Shown: positions 25,869-37,764 of the stretch, piece after piece | Layout: each line of letters begins with the position of its first letter | Position numbering within the stretch: position 1 is the first letter of the stretch | From: Alkalispirochaeta sp. | GTDB lineage: Bacteria; Spirochaetota; Spirochaetia; DSM-27196; Alkalispirochaetaceae | Length of the DNA stretch: 64,000 bases | Reading direction: 5' to 3' | Assembly (NCBI GenBank): GCA_965601925.1 | Contig: OZ271854.1 | Coordinates: 2,912,001-2,976,000, forward strand | The notes under the pieces: generated by a model | Database searches by the model: none | Seen by the model: the letters and a program-made list of their open reading frames with translations, nothing else | Told to the model about the DNA's origin: nothing | Program-made: the position numbers and the translations under genes

Positions 25869-27158
25869 CTAAGGGACCGTCGTGAATCGTGACTGGGGGC
25901 TGGAATGAGTCATTGCCGTTCCTTGATTGTTCCAAGCCCAAACGGCCCAGAAGTACGACTGTCCGCTTTGAAGTGGCTCAGGCGGTTCGCTACTGTCGTA
26001 GTTGCGGACGCCCTGACTAAAAGAAACGCTGCCCTCGATACCGGCCGGTAATCCGGTGTGCCAAACCCATACAATATCCGACTCGTTAACTATGCGACCG
26101 TCGGACACACGTATCGGTTCGGCAAAGATTCCAGCGAATACGAGGTTCGAGTTAGTCGGTGTCCAAGAAAAGGTGGGATTTGTCGTAGATAAGACTGCAT
26201 TCTCAGCGGGCGCGGCAAGAGCAATCCGAGTTTCTCCTTCAAAAACAAGCTCGTTTGGATTGGGAATAGGTTCGTACAACACAGTCCCGAGCGGACTGAC
26301 AATGTCGTTCCCCCCTGCACAGGTACCCGTAATGGACAGTTGCTCAATCGGTACGTCCCACTCGTTGCCGACAGCAGCAATTGTACTCGATGTATCATTC
26401 AGTAGATCGCAGTCGGTATTTTCGGCTATCGTGTTCATGCCATAACTGTCGAATACGCCGAGCCACGGCGAAGATGTCGCGTAGACGCTGATACCAATGC
26501 CGTTCATTACAATTTCGTTGTTGGTAATTGTCGGCTGTGATCCAGAGGTTACGAGAACGCCATCACCATTATTGGAGATGGTATTGTTGTCCACTACCGC
26601 CTCGGCGCGGCTGCTAATCACGATTCCAAAGTCCGAGTCTTCAATCGTGCTGTTCTCAATTCGAGTCTCGGACCCAGCCTCCAAGAATACCGCCGCCCCT
26701 CCTGGACTAGACAAACTGAAGCCAGAGACTACATTGGCGCCTAGAGATACGACGGCTGCATCTAAGGGCACTCCACCGTCTGGAAAGGTGTATGTTCCCA
26801 CGCCTCGAATGGTGGCCGCTCCGTCGGACGTGCTTACGAGTCTGATGTTTTCGTCCAGAATGATAGGAAATACTTCGCCATTTGCGTCGTCATACAACCC
26901 GGGCAGAACATACACCGGACGGTTACTGCCTGCGCTGTCAACGCCGGCGCTAATCGATCTCAGTGGGAAATCCCGAGATCCGTCTCCTCTGCTGTCACTA
27001 CCTGATGTTGCCGACACGTAGATTCCCACTGGATCGTTGGGGCTTAGTGGGGCGGAACAAGAGGTCACCAATGCGAGCCCAATGACAAAGAGAAGCGACA
27101 CCGTGGTGTTGGAGACCGTTACGGATTGTCGCTTGGCAAGACGTTGGTCAGATTTCAT
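25869..27158 (-). CDS. Lipoprotein with DUF1565 / right-handed beta-helix domain
   Basis: Lipobox LVTS-C; YVSATSGSD..GDGS..FP, GEVFPI; N(T/N)I..N..G(I/V) repeats. Confidence 0.75.
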   Translation of the reverse strand: MKSDQRLAKRQSVTVSNTTVSLLFVIGLALVTSCSAPLSPNDPVGIYVSATSGSDSRGDGSRDFPLRSISAGVDSAGSNRPVYVLPGLYDDANGEVFPIILDENIRLVSTSDGAATIRGVGTYTFPDGGVPLDAAVVSLGANVVSGFSLSSPGGAAVFLEAGSETRIENSTIEDSDFGIVISSRAEAVVDNNTISNNGDGVLVTSGSQPTITNNEIVMNGIGISVYATSSPWLGVFDSYGMNTIAENTDCDLLNDTSSTIAAVGNEWDVPIEQLSITGTCAGGNDIVSPLGTVLYEPIPNPNELVFEGETRIALAAPAENAVLSTTNPTFSWTPTNSNLVFAGIFAEPIRVSDGRIVNESDIVWVWHTGLPAGIEGSVSFSQGVRNYDSSEPPEPLQSGQSYFWAVWAWNNQGTAMTHSSPQSRFTTVP

Positions 27159-28425
27159 AGCGTACTCCAAGAACGCTGATCACTGAGTTTCGGTTGTCGA
27201 TGTTGGCGCCCGGCTCGCCAAGATGTGTAAAAGCGGTATCTTCGTAGTGCCAAAAAACTAGAGAATTGCTAATTTCAACAAAAATTCCTCTTGAAATTTC
27301 CACCCCAAGATGTACGGAAGAATGAAATCCTATCTCGTTGCTATCGTTGACTTGAACGGAGGGGCCAAAAACAAAATTCAGATACGCCTCTGGTCGTACC
27401 CTGAACAGGTTGATCCCCACTTCAAACCCCGCATCAACAGTCCATTCTCTATCGCTGTTAACTACCGACGGGACCCCACTAAGTACCTGATACTCTTGCG
27501 AATGGCCGAACGTATTAAGCCTCGATTGCACGCCGTAGACAACAGAGCGTAAGTGATTCTGGCGTAGCCACGAGACGCCGACAGTGGCGGCCGGCAAAAA
27601 CTGCCATGTCGATCCTCCTGCAATCCGGACGGCGAAGCGGCTTCTGGTCGGGAGTGGACGGGGACGGTCCTCAGAAACAAAGCTTCGGTACGTCTCTGGA
27701 TTCATTAAGTTGAAGCGAGGCCATCTGCGCACTCTTCCGGGATGCTGGCCTCTTGGGGTTCTGGCAGGTTGCGTGTTCAGTAGGTATGTGAGGGGTATGG
27801 CCCAAGCTAAACCACGACCCTCATGTAGACTAGCGGATATTACACCGAGAAGTCTTCCTTGATAAAAGACTGGTGCCCCGCTGATTCCAGTATAAACCGT
27901 TATATCCATTGAAATTATCTGGATATTCTGATTAAAAATTCTTCGGCTGTCAGGACCTCTAGGCCCTCTCGAACTCCGTATTTCATCACTTGTTAGTCTG
28001 CCGTGAATCACCTCATAGTTTTCTGAGTTATATGGAACACCAATTGTAGTGACCTCAACTCCGTCGTCGTATGATGAACTATCATGGATTTCTACGTATA
28101 GATCCATCCCGTCTCTCGATAGGATCGGTTCGTCTACCTGTAGTAGTGCAAGATCATAGTCAGGATATACTGCAAGTATATCCGCGTCGTAGGTTCGCCT
28201 ACGACCTGACATGTTGAGAATGGTGATTTCTCTGGCTCCATGAATGACGTGATATGCAGTAAGTATTTGGCGATCGTTCTCGTATAGGTAGCCCGTACCA
28301 TGGTGAGTTCCATCGCCGGGTATGCGAGCTTGTACTTTGACTATTCGGTCTCGTTGAGACTGGCTACTTAGATCAGCAGTTGCAATTAAGAGTATTATAT
28401 GAAACAAAAAAAAGAATAATTTCAA
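27148..28425 (-). CDS. Exported trypsin-like serine protease with C-terminal beta-strand-rich domain
   Basis: Signal peptide; triad motifs TAYHVI, DLALL, GISGAP. Confidence 0.8.
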   Translation of the reverse strand: MKLFFFLFHIILLIATADLSSQSQRDRIVKVQARIPGDGTHHGTGYLYENDRQILTAYHVIHGAREITILNMSGRRRTYDADILAVYPDYDLALLQVDEPILSRDGMDLYVEIHDSSSYDDGVEVTTIGVPYNSENYEVIHGRLTSDEIRSSRGPRGPDSRRIFNQNIQIISMDITVYTGISGAPVFYQGRLLGVISASLHEGRGLAWAIPLTYLLNTQPARTPRGQHPGRVRRWPRFNLMNPETYRSFVSEDRPRPLPTRSRFAVRIAGGSTWQFLPAATVGVSWLRQNHLRSVVYGVQSRLNTFGHSQEYQVLSGVPSVVNSDREWTVDAGFEVGINLFRVRPEAYLNFVFGPSVQVNDSNEIGFHSSVHLGVEISRGIFVEISNSLVFWHYEDTAFTHLGEPGANIDNRNSVISVLGVRYEI

Positions 28426-28862
28426 TTTCTTTTCAAGATATTAACAATAGTATCGAGCCCGCTTTGCGGGTCCTCATCGTAGTAGCCTTGATCATAGTTG
28501 GCTAAGAAAGTCTCCACAGAGTCAGACCGTGCAGAACGCAGGTATATGCTTCGAGCGATTGAACTTTCGTCATCATCGGATGTCATGCGTAGTTCGGGGC
28601 TTGCGCTGACTATCATCGAGACAATCAGAATTACGCCAAAAAATGAGAAGAAGATTCCCGGAGCTGTCGACCTTAAAGCTAGTTGTACCTTGTCTGTCCG
28701 TACGACTAATTCGGATTGTTCAGACTTTTCGGGTTTAGCTGATGCCACACTTGCTCCAGTCCGGACTGTGAAGAGTCTGTATCCGAGATACATCGACATG
28801 GCACCAACAAATAAAACCGACGTCCTGAAAAAAGACGCGTATAACATAAAATCTCTAAACAT
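28422..28862 (-). CDS. Hypothetical two-TM membrane protein
   Basis: YLGYRLF...TAPGIFFSFFGVILIV; 4-bp overlap with the protease gene. Confidence 0.65.
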   Translation of the reverse strand: MFRDFMLYASFFRTSVLFVGAMSMYLGYRLFTVRTGASVASAKPEKSEQSELVVRTDKVQLALRSTAPGIFFSFFGVILIVSMIVSASPELRMTSDDDESSIARSIYLRSARSDSVETFLANYDQGYYDEDPQSGLDTIVNILKRN

Positions 28863-29402: not shown

Positions 29403-30638
29403 TCACGCGTCGGGTGCAAGGGGCGTGCGAACGGTCCACATAGTAAAGGGATCGCGGCGCAGCGAAAGCTCCGCATCGATCTGGTCGGCCAGGGCTCTCA
29501 CAATACGCAGCCCTCCGGACTTTGGATCGTCGATTCCCACCGACTCGGGAATGCCGATCCCGTGGTCCTCGATGTCGACGGTAAGAACGCCCTTTCGATG
29601 GTTTAGAAAGACCCACGCCGGGCGATCGGGCAGGTCCTGGGCATAGGCGTGCTTGACGATATTGGAGAAGAGCTCATTGATAATCAGCCCGAGGGGAATC
29701 GCCGTCTCCATCTTGACCGCGACACGCTCGACACCGTCGGTCGAGATGTGGAGCGACGTGATGAGGCCGCTCCTGAGATATCCTTCGATGATCGCTTTCA
29801 CAAACGCCTCGATCTCTACAACCGAGACGCCGGCGGTTTGGTGAAACATCTCGTGCGTCTTCGCCATGGTCTGTACCCTGCGCTCCGCCTCGCCCAGAAT
29901 CTCAACGATCGACGCGTGTGATTCCCGCTGTTCTTCCTGTTGTATTGAGAGGAGACTGGCCACGATCTGTAGGCTGTTTTTGGTACGATGATGGAGCTCC
30001 CGGAGGAGGGTGGCGTTGCGGTCCCTCAGGGATTCGGCCTTTTCCAGCGCCTCGGTTCGAAGACGAACCTGTTCTTCAAAGTCAGCCTCGCGACGTTTGA
30101 TCTCATGCCACGCCGCGCGGGAAACTCCCCAAAACATCATGCATACCATTCCGGCCCCTGTGAACCATAGAATGATGAAAATCGTCGGCTGATCGGTCCA
30201 ACGAGTGACACTAATGATGACACCGGCAACGTACAACGGTATAACCGGTCCGAGCGTCAGGAGCGGACGACGAGTCAATACGTTGTACGCGAGGCCGATT
30301 GACAGCCCCACACCGAAAAAAACTAAGCTCGTTAAATCGTTCGGCTCAGAGTTGGCTGCGCTGGCACACGCATAGAAGAAGCACGAGTAAACCTGCATCC
30401 ATTGTACTATCCTGCGCCTCGAAAAGGCGGTATAGAGACCGACGGGAATCCAGATTGCGGTGAACCAAACGTCGAAATAACTCAGCGATGCGCGTAAGGA
30501 TTCATCGTAAACGGCTGTACGAGAGATGAGCGTAAGGGAAGCAGAGCCGATGGAACCGAATGCTATCGCAAGCCCGATTGTCCGCTGAAGGCGACGCATG
30601 GTCGAGTTTGCCAGCTTATGCGATGTATTCTCGTTCAT
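29403..30638 (-). CDS. Sensor histidine kinase (~6 TM + HisKA_2 + HATPase), paralog 1
   Basis: ELHHRTKNSLQ, NELFSNIVKHAY, DHGIG, GLRIV. Confidence 0.9.
   Translation of the reverse strand: MNENTSHKLANSTMRRLQRTIGLAIAFGSIGSASLTLISRTAVYDESLRASLSYFDVWFTAIWIPVGLYTAFSRRRIVQWMQVYSCFFYACASAANSEPNDLTSLVFFGVGLSIGLAYNVLTRRPLLTLGPVIPLYVAGVIISVTRWTDQPTIFIILWFTGAGMVCMMFWGVSRAAWHEIKRREADFEEQVRLRTEALEKAESLRDRNATLLRELHHRTKNSLQIVASLLSIQQEEQRESHASIVEILGEAERRVQTMAKTHEMFHQTAGVSVVEIEAFVKAIIEGYLRSGLITSLHISTDGVERVAVKMETAIPLGLIINELFSNIVKHAYAQDLPDRPAWVFLNHRKGVLTVDIEDHGIGIPESVGIDDPKSGGLRIVRALADQIDAELSLRRDPFTMWTVRTPLAPDA
29421..30055. repeat. 635-bp direct repeat, copy 1 (kinase core)
   Basis: Appears identical to 31004-31638 (offset 1583); internal ORF translations identical in several frames. 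Confidence 0.9.
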
Positions 30639-30964
30639 AGTGTGTCGTTTCAATTCCTCTGCTACCAGTTGGGCGGAGCCTACTCCTGCCGCAACTCGTT
30701 CTTGTGGGTTCATGCAAATTAAAAACCAAATATGGCAGGCCGGGCCGTCCGGCAACCTCGTTTCTACGGCTCGAATCCAGTTTCACCCTACTATAGTTGA
30801 ACGTTTGTGAGAGTGCACCATTGACGTTCTTCCGTCGCGGTCCGGTATCGCGCACCGAGAAGGACGTCACTGAGATAGGTGAATGCGTACGGGCCCCGAT
30901 AACAATACTGGGAATGAGGCGAACGCACGGTGTTGTCCATGGTGATTCCGCATACAGCTACGCG

Positions 30965-32221
30965 CTACGCCTCAATCTCGTTCGAGCCCCTGGCGGCGGC
31001 GAAGGGCGTGCGAACGGTCCACATAGTAAAGGGATCGCGGCGCAGCGAAAGCTCCGCATCGATCTGGTCGGCCAGGGCTCTCACAATACGCAGCCCTCCG
31101 GACTTTGGATCGTCGATTCCCACCGACTCGGGAATGCCGATCCCGTGGTCCTCGATGTCGACGGTAAGAACGCCCTTTCGATGGTTTAGAAAGACCCACG
31201 CCGGGCGATCGGGCAGGTCCTGGGCATAGGCGTGCTTGACGATATTGGAGAAGAGCTCATTGATAATCAGCCCGAGGGGAATCGCCGTCTCCATCTTGAC
31301 CGCGACACGCTCGACACCGTCGGTCGAGATGTGGAGCGACGTGATGAGGCCGCTCCTGAGATATCCTTCGATGATCGCTTTCACAAACGCCTCGATCTCT
31401 ACAACCGAGACGCCGGCGGTTTGGTGAAACATCTCGTGCGTCTTCGCCATGGTCTGTACCCTGCGCTCCGCCTCGCCCAGAATCTCAACGATCGACGCGT
31501 GTGATTCCCGCTGTTCTTCCTGTTGTATTGAGAGGAGACTGGCCACGATCTGTAGGCTGTTTTTGGTACGATGATGGAGCTCCCGGAGGAGGGTGGCGTT
31601 GCGGTCCCTCAGGGATTCGGCCTTTTCCAGCGCCTCGGCACTGAGGTGAATTTGCTCTTCCAAGTGTGCTTTGCGACGGTTCACCTCTTGCCACGCCGCT
31701 TTGCCGATGGCCCAATACATCACGCAAACCATACCTACCCCGGTAATCCAAAGCATGATGAATACCGCCGCTCGATCCGTCCACGCGTAGACACTCGCTA
31801 CCAGGCCGACGACATAGATTAGTGCTGCGGGACCCAATCTAATGAAGGGTTTCTCCCCGAATATCTCATAGGCGATTCCCAGTGCGACTCCGACACCGAA
31901 GTAGACCAGACTTGTCAATTCATTCTGATCTGCGGAGAACGCCCCGACGCACGCGAAGAACAGGCACGCGTATGTTTGAATCCACTGAGCCACTCTTTTC
32001 TTGGAAAAGGCGGTGTAGAATCCGACCGGTATCCATATTGCCGTGAACCAAACATTGCTGTGGCTTGCCGCGTCGAGCATTGAATAGTCAAAGACCGTCA
32101 TGCGATATGTAAACGTGAGTCCGGCCGAGAATATGGAGCCTATACCAATAGCGAGTCCAATGGTTCGCTGGAGGCGTAGCGGTATCACGTTTGCAGATTT
32201 ACTCGAAGTGCTGTTGTTCAT
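30965..32221 (-). CDS. Sensor histidine kinase (~6 TM + HisKA_2 + HATPase), paralog 2
   Basis: Same motifs as paralog 1; divergent TM domain. Confidence 0.92.
   Translation of the reverse strand: MNNSTSSKSANVIPLRLQRTIGLAIGIGSIFSAGLTFTYRMTVFDYSMLDAASHSNVWFTAIWIPVGFYTAFSKKRVAQWIQTYACLFFACVGAFSADQNELTSLVYFGVGVALGIAYEIFGEKPFIRLGPAALIYVVGLVASVYAWTDRAAVFIMLWITGVGMVCVMYWAIGKAAWQEVNRRKAHLEEQIHLSAEALEKAESLRDRNATLLRELHHRTKNSLQIVASLLSIQQEEQRESHASIVEILGEAERRVQTMAKTHEMFHQTAGVSVVEIEAFVKAIIEGYLRSGLITSLHISTDGVERVAVKMETAIPLGLIINELFSNIVKHAYAQDLPDRPAWVFLNHRKGVLTVDIEDHGIGIPESVGIDDPKSGGLRIVRALADQIDAELSLRRDPFTMWTVRTPFAAARGSNEIEA
31004..31638. repeat. 635-bp direct repeat, copy 2 (kinase core)
   Basis: Appears identical to 29421-30055. 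Confidence 0.9.
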
Positions 32222-32338
32222 AGTATGCCGGCCGACCCTCCGCTACCGTCTCACACGGCGACGGTCGTCCGCATGCTCGAATGGTGCGGGCTTTGCGACG
32301 CGCGGTCACCCTCATGGGTCGACTCGCGAAACTGCGTT

Positions 32339-33634
32339 CTATGCCTCGACATCATCCGCGTCGGTATCGGCGCCGGCGATTAAAGGGGTCCGAATAATCC
32401 ACGTGGTAAAGGGATTACGGCGCAGCGAAAGCTCGGCGTCGATCTGGCCCGCCAGGGCCTTCACAATGCGCAACCCACCGGATTTGGGATTATCCACTCC
32501 AACCGAGTCGGGAATGCCTATACCGTGATCTTCGATCGTGACGGTCAGGGCTTTCTCTTGATAGTTCAAAAAGACCCATACGGGACGGTCGGTCAAGTCC
32601 TGGGCGTAGGCATGTTGGACGACGTTGGAAAAGAGCTCGTTGATGATGAGTCCGAGGGGAATCGCCGTATCCATCTCCACCGCGACGTGCTCGACTTCGT
32701 CGGTTTCCACAAAGAGAGAGGTTATCAGGCCGCTCCGGAGATACCCCTCGATGATCGCCCGGACGAACAGCTCGATCCCGACCACCGATACGCCGTCGTG
32801 CTGATGAAACATCTCGTGCGTTTTGGCCATCGTCCGCACCCGTCTTTCCGCCTCGTTGAGAATGTCGCCGACCGATTTACGCGAGTCGTGTGTCTCCCCC
32901 TGTTGGATTGAAAGGAGGCTGGCCACGATTTGTAAGCTGTTTTTCGTACGGTGGTGAAGCTCTTTGAGGAGCATCGCGTTGCGATCCCGTAGTGACTCGG
33001 CTTCTTTGAGAGACGTTTCCAACGCCTCGGTACGGAGACGGATCTGTTCTTCAAGATGTGCTCTACGGCGCTTTATCTCCTGCCACGCCGCTTCTCCTAT
33101 AGCCCAGTACATCACGCAGACCATGGTGATACCGGTAAACCATAAGATGAGAAAAATGGTAACTCGATCGGTCCACCGATATACGCTTACGATCACGCCC
33201 ACTGCGTAAAAGAGAATAGGTGGACCCAGCGTAAGAACCGGACGCCGTGTGAATAGATCATACGCAATGCCAAGTGCCAATCCGACGCCGAAAAACACCA
33301 TGCTGGTCAGCTCATTTTGACGAGCACTGATGGCTCCTATGCACGCCACACAAAAGCATGCATAAGCTTGGACCCAACGGGCCAGTTTTCGTTTTGAAAA
33401 AGCGGTATAGAAACCGGCGGGGATCCAAAGGGCGACGAACCACACCCCAAGATCCGAAACGGCAACTCGAAATGGGAGGCCGACGACCGTAACGAGAGAG
33501 ACTAATGTCAATATTGACGTACTAATCGAACCAAATGCTATAGCTAACCCGATGATTCGCTGAAGGCGAAGTACAATCGGGTTAGGAGCAGGCCAGATCG
33601 TATCATTGTACTCGGACGTCTGCCTCAGTTTCAT
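32339..33634 (-). CDS. Sensor histidine kinase (~6 TM + HisKA_2 + HATPase), paralog 3
   Basis: KELHHRTKNSLQ, NELFSNVVQHAY, DHGIG; start could be TTG at 33652. Confidence 0.9.
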   Translation of the reverse strand: MKLRQTSEYNDTIWPAPNPIVLRLQRIIGLAIAFGSISTSILTLVSLVTVVGLPFRVAVSDLGVWFVALWIPAGFYTAFSKRKLARWVQAYACFCVACIGAISARQNELTSMVFFGVGLALGIAYDLFTRRPVLTLGPPILFYAVGVIVSVYRWTDRVTIFLILWFTGITMVCVMYWAIGEAAWQEIKRRRAHLEEQIRLRTEALETSLKEAESLRDRNAMLLKELHHRTKNSLQIVASLLSIQQGETHDSRKSVGDILNEAERRVRTMAKTHEMFHQHDGVSVVGIELFVRAIIEGYLRSGLITSLFVETDEVEHVAVEMDTAIPLGLIINELFSNVVQHAYAQDLTDRPVWVFLNYQEKALTVTIEDHGIGIPDSVGVDNPKSGGLRIVKALAGQIDAELSLRRNPFTTWIIRTPLIAGADTDADDVEA

Positions 33635-33661
33635 GAACGATACCAACGGCAATGAGTTGTT

Positions 33662-34216
33662 CTACCACACCTCTCTAATACTCGCAGTAGAATTATAAAT
33701 CTCATCCATCGCCGGACAATCAACCGCCTTGATGCGACGCACCAAATCATCGTGTATTATATCATAATCGAACGCGCCTGAAGCGACGGGATTGTATTTT
33801 CCCATAGCCGCGTCGATCTGAGTGTCGCGCTTGTAGTCGACGATCATGGTTAGGGCCAAGAGCGCCATACCCCGATCGATAATCGCCGCGTCACCACCGC
33901 GAAAGTTCATGATCAGCCGGAGACGGTCGAGGATATCGCCGTCGTCGCTGGGATCGGCGTTGAAGAACGGCTTGGTTTCGCGCACCGATAGAATGTAGGT
34001 GCCGAGGTGGGCAACGGCGGTACGCGTCGGTTGATCGCACCCTGCGAGAAAGGGGATCGCTGCGATCAATCTGGCGACCGGCTTGTCGTGGAACCGTGCA
34101 CGCTCTTCCTCATCCATACGGAACGAACGACCAACCGCCTCGGCGATCTCCGGCCATTGTGCGGAGAACACGCGCGAGAAATCGAGGGCGTTATTGACGG
34201 ACATGTCACGTAACAT
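33662..34216 (-). CDS. Hypothetical 184-aa protein with isoprenoid-synthase-like Asp motif and C-terminal Trp
   Basis: GGAGGT RBS; DPSDDGD and DYKRDTQIDAAMGKYNP motifs; ends STASIREVW. Confidence 0.7.
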   Translation of the reverse strand: MLRDMSVNNALDFSRVFSAQWPEIAEAVGRSFRMDEEERARFHDKPVARLIAAIPFLAGCDQPTRTAVAHLGTYILSVRETKPFFNADPSDDGDILDRLRLIMNFRGGDAAIIDRGMALLALTMIVDYKRDTQIDAAMGKYNPVASGAFDYDIIHDDLVRRIKAVDCPAMDEIYNSTASIREVW

Positions 34217-34802
34217 GGGCAGATACCTCCGGAAACGTTATTGGATGTGGTGAAAGGCAATGCTGATGTGCTGTCTTTACCGTATCAAGATTTGCGCATT
34301 TCGGTCAATGAGAAATGGTTTCTATTGACATTTGACCATAGCGCCGCCGGCAGAATCCGCCAACCGCGTTCCGTCATCGCTACAAGCGAGCGGCGGAGGC
34401 GAGTACGTCCCGAGTCGTCTCTGCATTCGCCTCGCCGGACACCGCAGCGGCGGCCCGCACTCCAACCGTACGGGTGCGTATCTGCCTGCTCATCGGCGTT
34501 CTATCCCTTAACCTAACTACCATAAGGTAGTTGGAGCGTGCCCGCCGCGGCACATAGTGGAAGACTCGCACAGGGAGAGGCGTTCGACCACGGACGGTAG
34601 GTGGTATCGTGACCACGACGAACGGTGTAAGAACCGGGCGGAACCGACACATCGCACTGCGCGCCTCGTGATGCTCTTGAACCGTCTTATCGCACAGCCG
34701 GCCGGTTTTATTCGGCGCGGGGCGGTATAATAACTATATTGCATATACACGAACCGAAGGGGGGAACGGTGCGTGGAGAGCCCGGTCGAAGGAGGAGCTT
34801 GT

Positions 34803-35807
34803 ATGACCGACCACGGGACACCGTTTGTCACCGTGCGGAAGATCCATTCCTCGAGGAGCGTTGTCTGCGGTTCATCGGGTGAGGCGGCGGTCGCGGAACT
34901 GCAAAGCGATCACAGCGGTCCGTTGCACGGTGCCTCCGAAAGTATCGGATCGAACGCGAAAGACGGAGATCCGGCGGTCTATCGACACGCCGACATCGAC
35001 GGCGCAAAGACGGCCTATCTGCGCATGGGGCGGGGCGAGCCGGTCCTCCTTCTCCACGGCATCGGAAGCTACTCCTACATTTGGCGCAATGTGGTACCGC
35101 TTCTCACGGATCGATTCGAGGTGATTGTGCCGGATCTGTTGGGCTGCGGTTACTCGACCGCCGCGCCGAACAAGCCGCTCGACCTCCGTGCACAGTACGA
35201 GCAAATCCTACGCTTCATACAAACGCTCGGTATACCGTCTCTGCACGTCGTCGGGCACGACTTCGGCGGCGCGATAGCGCAACTCTTGGCGATACACTCA
35301 CCCGAGGTGGTCAAGACCTTGATGCTGGTGAACTCGATCGGATACGACTACTGGCCCGTTACCGCCGTCAAAGCGGCTCGTTTTCCCATCGTGCGTCAGT
35401 TGGTCATAGGGCTCTTGGACAAGACCGTCTTTGCGTCGATGTTGCGTCGCGCGGTCTATTTCCCGGAACGCCTCACAAAAGGGGTCGTCGATCAGTATAG
35501 ATTGCCGTACCGAGCGGCGGCCGCTCGTCGAACGTTGATGCGTCTCCTGCGTTCTCTCGAACACGGGTATCTCGTCTCCGAGGCGCCCGGACTCAAACAC
35601 CTGACGATGCCCGCCTGCGTCGTCAGGGCCGCCAACGACGTCTATCTCAGCCGAGCGATCGCCGTCCGTCTGGCCGCAGACATCCCGACGGCGCGCTTGG
35701 TCGAAATAGACGAGGCGGGTCACTTCGTTCAGGAGGACAAGCCCGAACGGGTCGCAGAGCTCTTCCTCGAACTTGCCGGAGCCGACGGCGAACGACGTAC
35801 GCGGTGA
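34803..35807 (+). CDS. Alpha/beta hydrolase (epoxide hydrolase/dehalogenase-like, Asp nucleophile)
   Basis: LLHGIG, PDLLGCG, GHDFGG, AGHFVQED; GGAGGAG RBS. Confidence 0.88.
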   Translation: MTDHGTPFVTVRKIHSSRSVVCGSSGEAAVAELQSDHSGPLHGASESIGSNAKDGDPAVYRHADIDGAKTAYLRMGRGEPVLLLHGIGSYSYIWRNVVPLLTDRFEVIVPDLLGCGYSTAAPNKPLDLRAQYEQILRFIQTLGIPSLHVVGHDFGGAIAQLLAIHSPEVVKTLMLVNSIGYDYWPVTAVKAARFPIVRQLVIGLLDKTVFASMLRRAVYFPERLTKGVVDQYRLPYRAAAARRTLMRLLRSLEHGYLVSEAPGLKHLTMPACVVRAANDVYLSRAIAVRLAADIPTARLVEIDEAGHFVQEDKPERVAELFLELAGADGERRTR

Positions 35808-37764
35808 TGCACCCTTGGAAGATCTCCGTAACGAACTGAAGCTTCTGAGGGAGGAGAACGAGTTCCTCACCCACGCCGCCGAAAACATTCACCTCCTCAA
35901 CGCCGTTGCGGAGTATATGGCGCTTCGGCCGGAGTCGGAGGGCGTTTTTTCGACGTTAATGGAGAGTCTTGCCGCCGTCAAAGAGTGCGATCACCTCGCC
36001 CTGCTCGCCGTCGATGGCGGTTTTCGGTTGGTCGAGGAGTATCCCCACCGAGACGCGTCGACCCGACCATGGCGCTCTCATCCCCTGCCGACGAACTATC
36101 GCGACATCAACACGCGGGAGATCTCCCTGATACGCGTTTTGGATGAGGCGGGATTCTGGCACGACGTCGCGCGCGATCTATGGGCTCCTCGGGAGATAGA
36201 TCGCATGCTGGTACTGCCTTTTTTTCGGCAAAGTCGTCCTTATCGCATCTTGATACTGACGTTGCCGACCGATGAGACCGACGACCTATCCGGGTTTCTC
36301 TCCATACTGGAGCGGATTCGCGACTTGGTCGAATCTCGCGTCCGCATGAACGAGATGATTGCGGAGATCAACACGTTGAACGACCAGCTGCGACGGAAGC
36401 TGGCACGCGAGCTGGCGATCAACGCCGACCTTCGTGAGCAGGTCGCGACGGAGGTGACCTTCGACTCCAAGACGGGACTGTTAAGTCGCTACGGATTCTT
36501 TGAGAAGTTCGCGGAGATCATCGGCACGGGGGACCATCGCCATTTCGCCGTCATGAAGGTGAATATCAACCGCTTTGCCACGGTAAATCACACGATGGGA
36601 ACCGACGCCGGCGACGTGATCATTCGCGTCACCGCCCAGCGGATTCAACGTGCGCTTCGTTATACCGACCTCTTGGCGCGGGTCGGGAGCGACCATTTTT
36701 TGATTCTTCTGGTGCAGGAGCGGGACGAAGAGCGAGGTTCACGAGAGATTCAAATAGCTCACCACATCTTCGACGAGATGGACACACCGTTTGCGTTGCA
36801 CGGGAAGGAGGTGCTTCTCTCCATCAGCATCGGCATTACCTATCCCGCACCGGACCGGGAGATCGTGCCGGAAAAGCTCGTCGACGAGGCCCACGAGGCG
36901 ATGGTTATCGCCAAAGAGAAAAACGAGAGCAAGTTCGAGATTTACTCCGGGAGCGTCGCGGCGGGCAGTAGAACGGAGAAGCTCCTGGAAATTGATCTCT
37001 GGAAAGGCATCAAGGACGACGCCTTTTTCATGCTGTTTCAGCCGATCGTCAGCCTCGAGACGGGACGCGTTGCCAAGTTGGAGTCTCTGGTGAGATGGGA
37101 CCATCCGACTCTGGGGCAGGTTGCGCCGAGTCGGTTCATTCCGATCGCCGACAAGACCGGTCTTATCGTCGAGCTCGGGAACTGGATTTTGCACGACGTG
37201 GCCCGGACGCTCCGCGTACTCGACGAGCGGTATCCACAGAATCCGGAGGTGCCGGTTTCGGTAAACGTATCGGTCAAGCAACTCATCGCGCGAGGATTCG
37301 TAGAGAGTATCCGCGAGCTCAACTCCACGCTCTCCCGAACGTCGTGGAAGCTGGGAATAGAGATAACCGAAAGCGAACTGATTCGATATTTCGACAAGAC
37401 GAAAGAGGTGTTGGAGAACATATCGTCCACCGGCATCGCCATCAGTCTCGACGATTTTGGAACGGGCTACTCCTCGCTCAGCTATCTTCCGAACTTGCAG
37501 TACGACAGTATCAAGATTCCGCGAGAGTTCATTAAGGCTATCACCGAGAACCGCAGTCACAGAAACATCGTCAAGGCGGTCATCGACTTGGCCCATACCC
37601 TGGACAAAGAGGTCATCATAGAGGGAGTGGAGACCAAAGAGCAGCTGACCCTGGTCAAGGGCCTGGAAGCCGATTACGTCCAAGGCTATTACTTCCTGAA
37701 ACCGGCGACCGAGGCGGAGATCATCGACCGGCTTCGACACGACACCTTTCGGTTTGCGTTGTAG
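35773..37764 (+). CDS. GGDEF(degenerate)-EAL protein, probable c-di-GMP phosphodiesterase
   Basis: RVGSDHF; FQPIV, ESLVRW, EITES, DDFGTGYSSL, EGVET, QGYY. Confidence 0.9.
   Translation: MPEPTANDVRGDAPLEDLRNELKLLREENEFLTHAAENIHLLNAVAEYMALRPESEGVFSTLMESLAAVKECDHLALLAVDGGFRLVEEYPHRDASTRPWRSHPLPTNYRDINTREISLIRVLDEAGFWHDVARDLWAPREIDRMLVLPFFRQSRPYRILILTLPTDETDDLSGFLSILERIRDLVESRVRMNEMIAEINTLNDQLRRKLARELAINADLREQVATEVTFDSKTGLLSRYGFFEKFAEIIGTGDHRHFAVMKVNINRFATVNHTMGTDAGDVIIRVTAQRIQRALRYTDLLARVGSDHFLILLVQERDEERGSREIQIAHHIFDEMDTPFALHGKEVLLSISIGITYPAPDREIVPEKLVDEAHEAMVIAKEKNESKFEIYSGSVAAGSRTEKLLEIDLWKGIKDDAFFMLFQPIVSLETGRVAKLESLVRWDHPTLGQVAPSRFIPIADKTGLIVELGNWILHDVARTLRVLDERYPQNPEVPVSVNVSVKQLIARGFVESIRELNSTLSRTSWKLGIEITESELIRYFDKTKEVLENISSTGIAISLDDFGTGYSSLSYLPNLQYDSIKIPREFIKAITENRSHRNIVKAVIDLAHTLDKEVIIEGVETKEQLTLVKGLEADYVQGYYFLKPATEAEIIDRLRHDTFRFAL

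Follow-up and report, generated by a model that had tools for sequence, protein, structure and literature searches.

A spirochaete protein family with a near-terminal tryptophan, paired with membrane sensors, as a candidate self-prenylating peptide signal

We analysed a 64-kb stretch of the genome of Alkalispirochaeta sp. (the window, meaning that whole stretch) in which a gene for a 184-amino-acid (aa) protein is followed by three sensor histidine kinases. The small protein belongs to a family with a conserved aspartate motif and a near-invariant tryptophan (Trp) close to the C-terminus. Its gene is linked to that of a membrane sensor carrying one of two output types, and in one pair of loci the tail of the protein and the start of the sensor differ as a clean cassette swap. 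This two-gene module is real, widespread and apparently undescribed, and would be a new architecture of Trp-prenyl peptide signalling. That the small protein is a signal with a cognate receptor we regard as very probable. We favour, with clearly less confidence, a full mechanism in which a fused enzyme and precursor prenylates its own Trp and the released lipopeptide serves as a strain-specific signal. Towards the most inclusive proposal we lean only slightly: genes of 170–190 aa would encode a half-size prenyltransferase lacking the aspartate-rich motif that comes first (FARM) together with its own pheromone precursor, forming a pherotype lipopeptide system in about a quarter of the sampled Spirochaetia genomes, with a new sensor family of six transmembrane (TM) segments, kinase or DNA-binding output, and eavesdropping receptors.

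A protein family and its adjacent sensor

Relatives of the 184-aa protein numbered 147 among 339 candidates; counted separately, they form 340 clusters at 50% identity, of which the best 150 were examined. Of 401 Spirochaetia genomes in our sample of the class, 92 carry the family. Every relative that carries a name is a spirochaete; most are nameless, and other phyla are possible. The protein matched no Pfam or NCBIfam family (PF00348 was found in 0 of 112 relatives), sequence searches of the PDB gave chance matches only, and the ESM Atlas held no usable match. No relatives were found in IMG/VR or in plasmid and phage collections, and a weak search of 8000 candidates returned no longer fused form.

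We collected 269 family proteins and derived conservation figures from the 248 that are near full length. Column conservation is 1.00 for G108, 0.99 for W184, D135, N142 and R98, and 0.98 for P143, with lower values for D131 (0.94), R65 (0.91), D91 (0.89) and D127 (0.77). A reading of the DNA that preceded this work (the original prediction) had pointed to two Asp motifs and a terminal Trp. The motif DxxxDxxxDxxxGKYNP is indeed conserved. DPSDDGD mostly is not, with D91 its one conserved position (D92 0.58, D94 0.37, position 88 variable), and it was rejected as the first Asp motif of the family. Trp stands at the very end in 11 of 120 relatives, but a near-terminal Trp is general: it lies within the last 6 residues in all 120, and in 231 of the 248 proteins the last Trp is no more than 5 residues from the end, mostly third or fourth from last. 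For background, 169 of 3606 long open reading frames (ORFs) of this genome (4.7%) have a Trp that close to the end. The residues before the Trp are usually Gly or Ser plus an aromatic residue (125 paired loci). Among the 184-aa protein and its six closest relatives, mean identity is 86% in the core, 57% in helix 151–163 and 21% over the last 11 residues. Nine proteins (P0033, P0035-P0040, P0042 and P0044) have a longer tail in which Trp occurs at two sites, as WW some 10 residues before the end and as W third from last, possibly a double signal.

For brevity we call the small gene the enzyme gene, after its predicted function. Of the 180 enzyme hits in the loci retrieved, we set aside 21 as partial, 9 as duplicates and 10 for lying at contig ends, which left 140 informative loci. 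A homologous sensor gene with five or six TM segments adjoins the enzyme gene in 131 of these, directly downstream in 129 and divergently upstream in 2, in agreement with the linkage to membrane receptors expected from the single locus. The sensor profile was built from part of the same loci; adjacency in later-fetched loci outside it was 36 of 37 (7 at contig ends dropped). The distance from enzyme stop to the start of the sensor domain ranges from -39 to +255 nucleotides (nt) and is below 100 nt in 125 of the 129 pairs. A conserved third gene was rejected, since the neighbours that recur are shadow frames, belong to generic families or reflect clade synteny.

Among 69 receptor sequences scanned with Pfam, in which some proteins are counted twice, there were 32 kinases, 29 LuxR-type helix-turn-helix (HTH) proteins and 8 with neither. 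Kinase-linked and HTH-linked sensors are homologous (hhalign 99.7%; 48/62 and 22/22 above 20 bits, reversed controls 0). The LuxR-type one-component output on the same sensor had gone unnoticed in the original prediction. An enzyme tree made by a quick method from 109 of 125 rows calls for 8 switches of output, of which well-supported branches force only 2; output class was assigned by length, with some truncated kinases given the wrong label. In the ESM Atlas the sensor loosely resembles MASE6/7/11/2 clusters, which is a lead only. The sensor occurs in 118 of the 401 genomes and in 86 of the 92 that bear the enzyme (two lists compared by hand). The 32 sensor-only genomes, 20 of which are at least 90% complete, gave no enzyme with a wider profile either. 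Tandem extra receptors recur (L053, L060, L084 and L145).

Several loci vary in layout. The receptor lies divergently upstream in L064 and L071 and is convergent in L125, and an extra receptor is convergent in L060. Loci L117, L128 and L129 versus L122, L126 and L131 represent the same site with and without a TM-LuxR receptor, the enzyme and its Trp tail being kept where the receptor is lost. The enzyme gene of L125 is split over 2.4 kb, while L138, L133 and L076 have broken enzyme genes beside intact receptors (possible non-producers). A transposase-like frame (L104:5535-6440) lies directly behind the enzyme gene at the usual receptor position. The Alkalispirochaeta genome also encodes a fifth, distant sensor member (438-aa frame, G000:C1:2881041-2882357, plus strand) with no enzyme beside it, and similar weak solo matches were seen in the related genomes G526, G541, G622 and G578.

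The metagenome loci L156 and L158, compared as assemblies only, differ at 132 of 285 bases within a single block, with 1 difference in the 617 bp before it and 0 in the 1031 bp after it. The block runs from two codons before the Trp to TM3 of the receptor, and the tails end in ...SFWGT (L156) and ...SYWGL (L158). All frames are intact, which argues against chimeric assembly. We conclude that the block is the signature of a pherotype cassette, tail and sensor N-terminus having been exchanged together in this one locus pair. L159 and L160 represent a third allele (enzyme cores 94%, kinase cores 93–95% and sensors 59–61% identical), and identity between L078 and L083 also drops there, though less strongly. 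In 50 of 58 close pairs, which are not independent of one another, conservation is lower in the sensor than in the output. The most variable part of the sensor among close pairs is the TM1-TM2 loop (0.45), predicted to face outward. A complex prediction for the L159 sensor and the last 30 residues of its enzyme scored 0.00, and the controls did not fold either, so that it is evidence neither way.

Predicted fold, proposed mechanism and alternatives

AlphaFold models of the 184-aa protein and of P0053, a canonical member with a wider alignment, are all-helical, with predicted local distance difference test (pLDDT) scores of 91 and 93; the tail is ordered in the P0053 model (87/79). In a structural search of 48,161 chains, 49 of the 50 top chains for each of the two models had an isoprenoid-synthase or UbiA fold, as read from entry titles. 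Top matches include the prenyltransferases MoeN5, Ord1, DabA and UBIAD1, Ord1 at Z 6.0–6.1. The best scores were Z 7.7 (root-mean-square deviation (rmsd) 4.5, 160 residues aligned) and Z 8.4 (rmsd 4.4, 154 aligned), and the search tool warns that Z below about 13 can be chance for helical bundles. Because the Z values alone could be chance, the fold call leans on the enrichment and the Asp triad. A further comparison, confined to re-ranking Foldseek's own list, agrees with the wide search. UbiA chains align through their N-terminal half with residues 88–186 (Z 5.0–5.5).

The triad D127/D131/D135 lies on helices 110–130 and 132–137 and is the only Asp-rich motif, with metal binding predicted. 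It weakly matches the second motif of squalene/phytoene synthases: against 28 spirochaete phytoene synthases the motif alone aligned with the family profile (E 0.01–0.08), and in one comparison (A3) the score was 17.8, where 30 shuffles reached at most 16.4. The loop residues D91-D92 may stand in for FARM. From the models and conservation, the protein is probably a remote, reduced member of the isoprenoid synthase superfamily and not a ComQ, as it has neither the FARM nor the Gln by which ComQ, PalQ and Ord1 are defined. The isoprenoid-synthase-type fold of the original prediction is resembled, but remotely, and membership of the ComQ family was not borne out, there being no PF00348 match.

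In the mechanism that we propose, the body would use D127/D131/D135, together with R98 and K140, to bind Mg and a prenyl diphosphate, as suggested by fold and conservation. The tail, ordered in one of the two models, would fold back, and its Trp would be prenylated in cis or on the tail of a dimer partner. An unlinked protease and exporter would release about 5–8 residues. Specificity would come from the outward TM1-TM2 region of the sensor, to which allele differences and a topology based on hydrophobicity and charge point. The receptor domains observed suggest direct DNA binding in the LuxR-HTH versions and, at the Alkalispirochaeta locus, phosphorylation of an unlinked regulator. The two extra kinases of that locus, and the sensors of enzyme-less genomes, may listen to the signals of other strains. 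Three polyprenyl synthases (PF00348 matches) in the genome are possible prenyl donor sources, and the 184-aa protein is not among them.

A number of results weigh against this proposal. The fold scores are middling, as true members of the fold score Z of about 30 (PMC12510300). Foldseek gave no match at E ≤ 0.001 for either model, a profile comparison with 33 polyprenyl synthases gave none, and the sequence-family and PDB searches were negative as described above. A FARM DDxxD occurs anywhere in only 14 of the 248 proteins, no Gln is conserved before the Asp motif (positions 119–126; Q at 124 in 4/248), and D127 is replaced by Gly in 42/248. The tail is disordered in the 184-aa protein's own model (pLDDT 42), and its hypervariability, clear among close relatives, does not exceed that of surface helix 151–163 family-wide. 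A swapped block of tail and sensor was found, but the expected covariation of the two over 34 disjoint pairs, in which the N-terminal sensor half tracks the tail, with relatedness allowed for, at a partial rho of 0.35 versus 0.17 for the control helix, is only suggestive (permutation p = 0.10). L122 and L126 have the same tail, yet their sensors are 61% identical. Since tail and sensor are adjacent DNA, the tail could hitch-hike on a receptor under selection. Finally, 9 of the 140 enzymes have no adjacent sensor and still keep the Trp, and no protease or exporter is a conserved neighbour, nor is any regulator.

Some of these results would suit a minimal synthase whose product is a small, diffusible signal of isoprenoid (or prenyl-indole) type; in such an enzyme the Trp would form a wall or lid of the active site and the variable tail would tune the product read by the receptor. 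An active-site Trp or His is known near the C-terminal end of the catalytic domain of class I terpene cyclases. Such cyclases are among the fold hits, with several alignments reaching model residue 183–184, the C-terminal end of that domain, and the absence of a linked protease or exporter and the Trp retained in the 9 receptor-less copies fit equally. We nevertheless consider this explanation unlikely: the segment past the Trp is variable in length as well as in sequence and changes together with the sensor, its peptide-like diversity goes far beyond the need of product tuning, and the best structural hits are prenyltransferases, not cyclases. We hold it similarly improbable that the body is a non-catalytic scaffold or cytoplasmic partner, possibly a prenyl-diphosphate sensor, with the intact protein or unmodified tail binding the receptor directly. 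The missing FARM, the D127G replacements, the lack of both a signal peptide and a linked exporter, and a strict 1:1 gene pairing that suits a partner subunit speak for it, whereas the near-invariant D131, D135, R98 and N142 look catalytic, the most variable part of the sensor is predicted to face outward, and the allele cassettes and the 32 sensor-only genomes fit signalling between cells.

That tail and receptor form a signal pair is better supported, by genetic evidence, than the fold is, where all Z values are below 9, and conserved C60, H70 and Y74 have no assignable counterpart. These points would agree with a self-modifying precursor of a peptide signal whose Trp chemistry is other than prenylation, the fold likeness being a helical-bundle coincidence. 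This seems to us a shade less probable still than the two explanations above, given that one superfamily is enriched near-exclusively in two independent models and that the Asp triad is spaced as in the UbiA motif NDXXDXXXD (motif from PMC12510300).

The Alkalispirochaeta locus

The features of the locus are listed in Table 1. The original prediction placed the 184-aa gene, with a strong ribosome-binding site, 9–27 bp before the first of three co-oriented kinases, and the ORF, the GGAGG and the spacing all agree: the next start is 9 nt (TTG 33652) or 27 nt (ATG 33634) from its stop. The protein ends in ...EIYNSTASIREVW, and both motifs quoted in the prediction are present in the ORF. The final tail codons (33662-33680, minus strand) double as a Shine-Dalgarno-like GAGGTG serving the TTG start of the next gene, which suggests translational coupling. 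A 14-mer around the -35 element recurs with one mismatch 5' of a paralogous module; allowing ≤1 mismatch, the 5.05 Mb contain 3 matches, and these loci account for two. That second copy of the module in the same genome (G000:C1:3603400-3605300, L002) has an enzyme 68% identical to the first, a different tail and a single HisKA_2 kinase directly behind.

Table 1. Positions of the candidate signalling locus and its parts within the 64-kb window
Feature	Position	Strand	Basis
Small gene; predicted enzyme-precursor fusion, minimal isoprenoid-synthase-like fold with C-terminal Trp tail	33662..34216	-	184-aa ORF, family, conservation, models
Conserved Asp motif, residues 127-143 (D127, D131, D135, G139, K140, Y141, N142, P143); predicted Mg/prenyl-diphosphate site	33788..33838	-	Conservation of 0.77–0.99 per column in 248 proteins, weak profile match
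Variable tail (residues 174-184, W184 invariant), the predicted signal peptide	33665..33697	-	Identity among close relatives, W column 0.99
Shine-Dalgarno GGAGG, ATG 9 nt further on	34226..34230	-	Sequence
Promoter-like site, TTGACC, 18 nt, TACGGT	34279..34308	-	Sequence; putative function
First kinase; 6-TM sensor (about 33068-33634) and HisKA_2/HATPase; alternative TTG start 33652	32339..33634	-	ORF, Pfam, position
Second kinase; divergent sensor (about 31682-32221); likely extra-specificity receptor	30965..32221	-	ORF, Pfam
Third kinase; ATG 30638 the likely start, with the frame open up to 30755; sensor divergent, at about 30099-30638; likely a receptor for an additional specificity	29403..30638	-	ORF, Pfam
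Copy 1 of the exact 635-bp repeat, in the cytoplasmic core of the second kinase	31004..31638	.	Sequence, double depth
Copy 2 of the exact 635-bp repeat, in the cytoplasmic core of the third kinase	29421..30055	.	Sequence, double depth

All three kinases share one orientation, and each has a PF07568 HisKA_2 H-box and a HATPase_c domain (E about 1e-16 and 1e-7, above cut-offs), which places them in the HisKA_2/HWE group. The first is likely the cognate receptor, its position matching that of the adjacent receptor in 129 loci. As originally described, the sensors diverge (53–58% pairwise identity) and the three quoted loop sequences are present. The cytoplasmic cores are conserved, but not equally so: the second and third are 100% identical over 192 aa, and the first is 78% identical to both. 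Read depth over the 635-bp repeat is about twice that of the flanks (runs X1 and X2, one sample); it is therefore a real duplication, and an assembly artefact was ruled out. No remnant of a second enzyme gene or tail was found before the second and third kinases. The statement that the cluster has no response regulator also holds, with 0 of 78 receiver-domain matches in the genome falling inside the window.

The tail of the 184-aa gene and the sensor-coding DNA are AT-richer here, as had been noted, with a GC content of 0.42 versus 0.59 for the tail (third codon positions (GC3) 0.46 versus 0.72) and of 0.50–0.53 in the sensors versus 0.57–0.59 in the kinase cores. The shift is small family-wide (tail GC3 -0.024, lower in 72/125; sensor versus output -0.044, 76/118), and AT-richness was set aside as a weak family marker. 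Divergent from the locus, an alpha/beta hydrolase gene overlaps a GGDEF-EAL gene (34773-37764, plus strand); they could process or respond to the signal here, and this neighbour is not conserved. On the 3' side of the kinases, a lower-GC run (25869-28862, minus strand) encodes a DUF1565/beta-helix protein, a trypsin-like peptidase whose C-terminal region is beta-rich, and a small membrane protein.

Relation to known systems and significance

In the agrBDC locus of staphylococci, conserved flanks enclose a variable block that extends from the signal gene to the N-terminal part of the receptor; this locus differs from the present module in its thiolactone chemistry, membrane peptidase and separate precursor. 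UbiA and squalene/phytoene synthases share the arrangement of Asp/Asn at 0, +4 and +8 followed by G-K/R-Y-x-P, whereas the protein here is soluble, only 184 aa long and has one motif only.

A close parallel is the Bacillus ComQ-ComX-ComP(-ComA) system, which also has an isoprenoid-synthase-like enzyme, a Trp near the C-terminus of a variable peptide, an adjacent multi-TM kinase and allelic polymorphism (PMC4008528, PMC4408185). The features kept here are the Trp near the end of a variable peptide, on the enzyme chain, and the polymorphic signal-receptor block of L156/L158. ComQ has 286–309 aa and ComX 52–73 aa (PMC4008528, PMC4408185), whereas here enzyme and peptide form one 184-aa chain with no PF00348 match, no FARM and no separate ComX gene. 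The distinction from ComQ is drawn from the published features of ComQ. The kinase, unlike ComP, is HisKA_2/HWE and not HisKA_3, no response regulator is linked, and about half of the receptors are TM-LuxR one-component proteins. A 2014 census of comQXPA reported none outside Firmicutes (PMC4008528), whereas the host here is diderm, and the full Com pathway is reported only in bacilli and clostridia (PMC8895600).

Characterised peptide prenyltransferases resembling trans-isoprenyl diphosphate synthases all target Trp (PMC13290415), and in palP-palX-palQ of Paenibacillus an enzyme of this type occurs together with a kinase and a peptide that ends in Trp (PMC10853753). PalQ, ChrPC and Ord1 share the all-helical fold predicted for our family, and the pal locus likewise has an aromatic-Trp C-terminus beside a kinase (PMC10853753, PMC13290415, PMC12510300). 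Unlike the family here, these enzymes have a separate NHLP precursor, about 300 aa, a FARM and a Gln before a pseudo-second aspartate-rich motif; FARM and Gln both matter in ComQ, PalQ and Ord1 (PMC13290415, PMC12510300). PalQ also needs a terminal Trp, whereas here usually 1–4 residues follow it. Fused borosins (OphMA) likewise carry a modifying enzyme and a C-terminal core peptide on one autocatalytic chain, but OphMA is an S-adenosylmethionine-dependent methyltransferase of unrelated fold that makes fungal toxins and has no receptor (PMC9811515), and neither Pfam nor the fold search gave a methyltransferase match for the 184-aa protein. Judged from sequence, the system works like comQXP and palPXQ, yet it fails their defining features.

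No publication describing the small-protein family was found in a search of the open-licence literature. The same literature yielded no native peptide signal system in spirochaetes. If the proposal is true, Trp-prenylated peptide signalling, known so far from reports in Firmicutes alone (2014 census, PMC4008528), would be shown to reach a diderm phylum, and the protein would be the first prenyltransferase fused to its own substrate found in an open-licence literature search. Within the isoprenoid-synthase fold it would stand out by its small size, and it would be of use in studies of fold evolution and peptide lipidation. The TM-LuxR versions would then be membrane receptors of the one-component kind that read a lipopeptide. 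Provided that the chemistry is right, a whole protein would be spent per signal molecule, as in the fused borosins (PMC9811515). The module offers a two-gene signal-receptor pair that is directly testable, with natural alleles that differ in a few residues.

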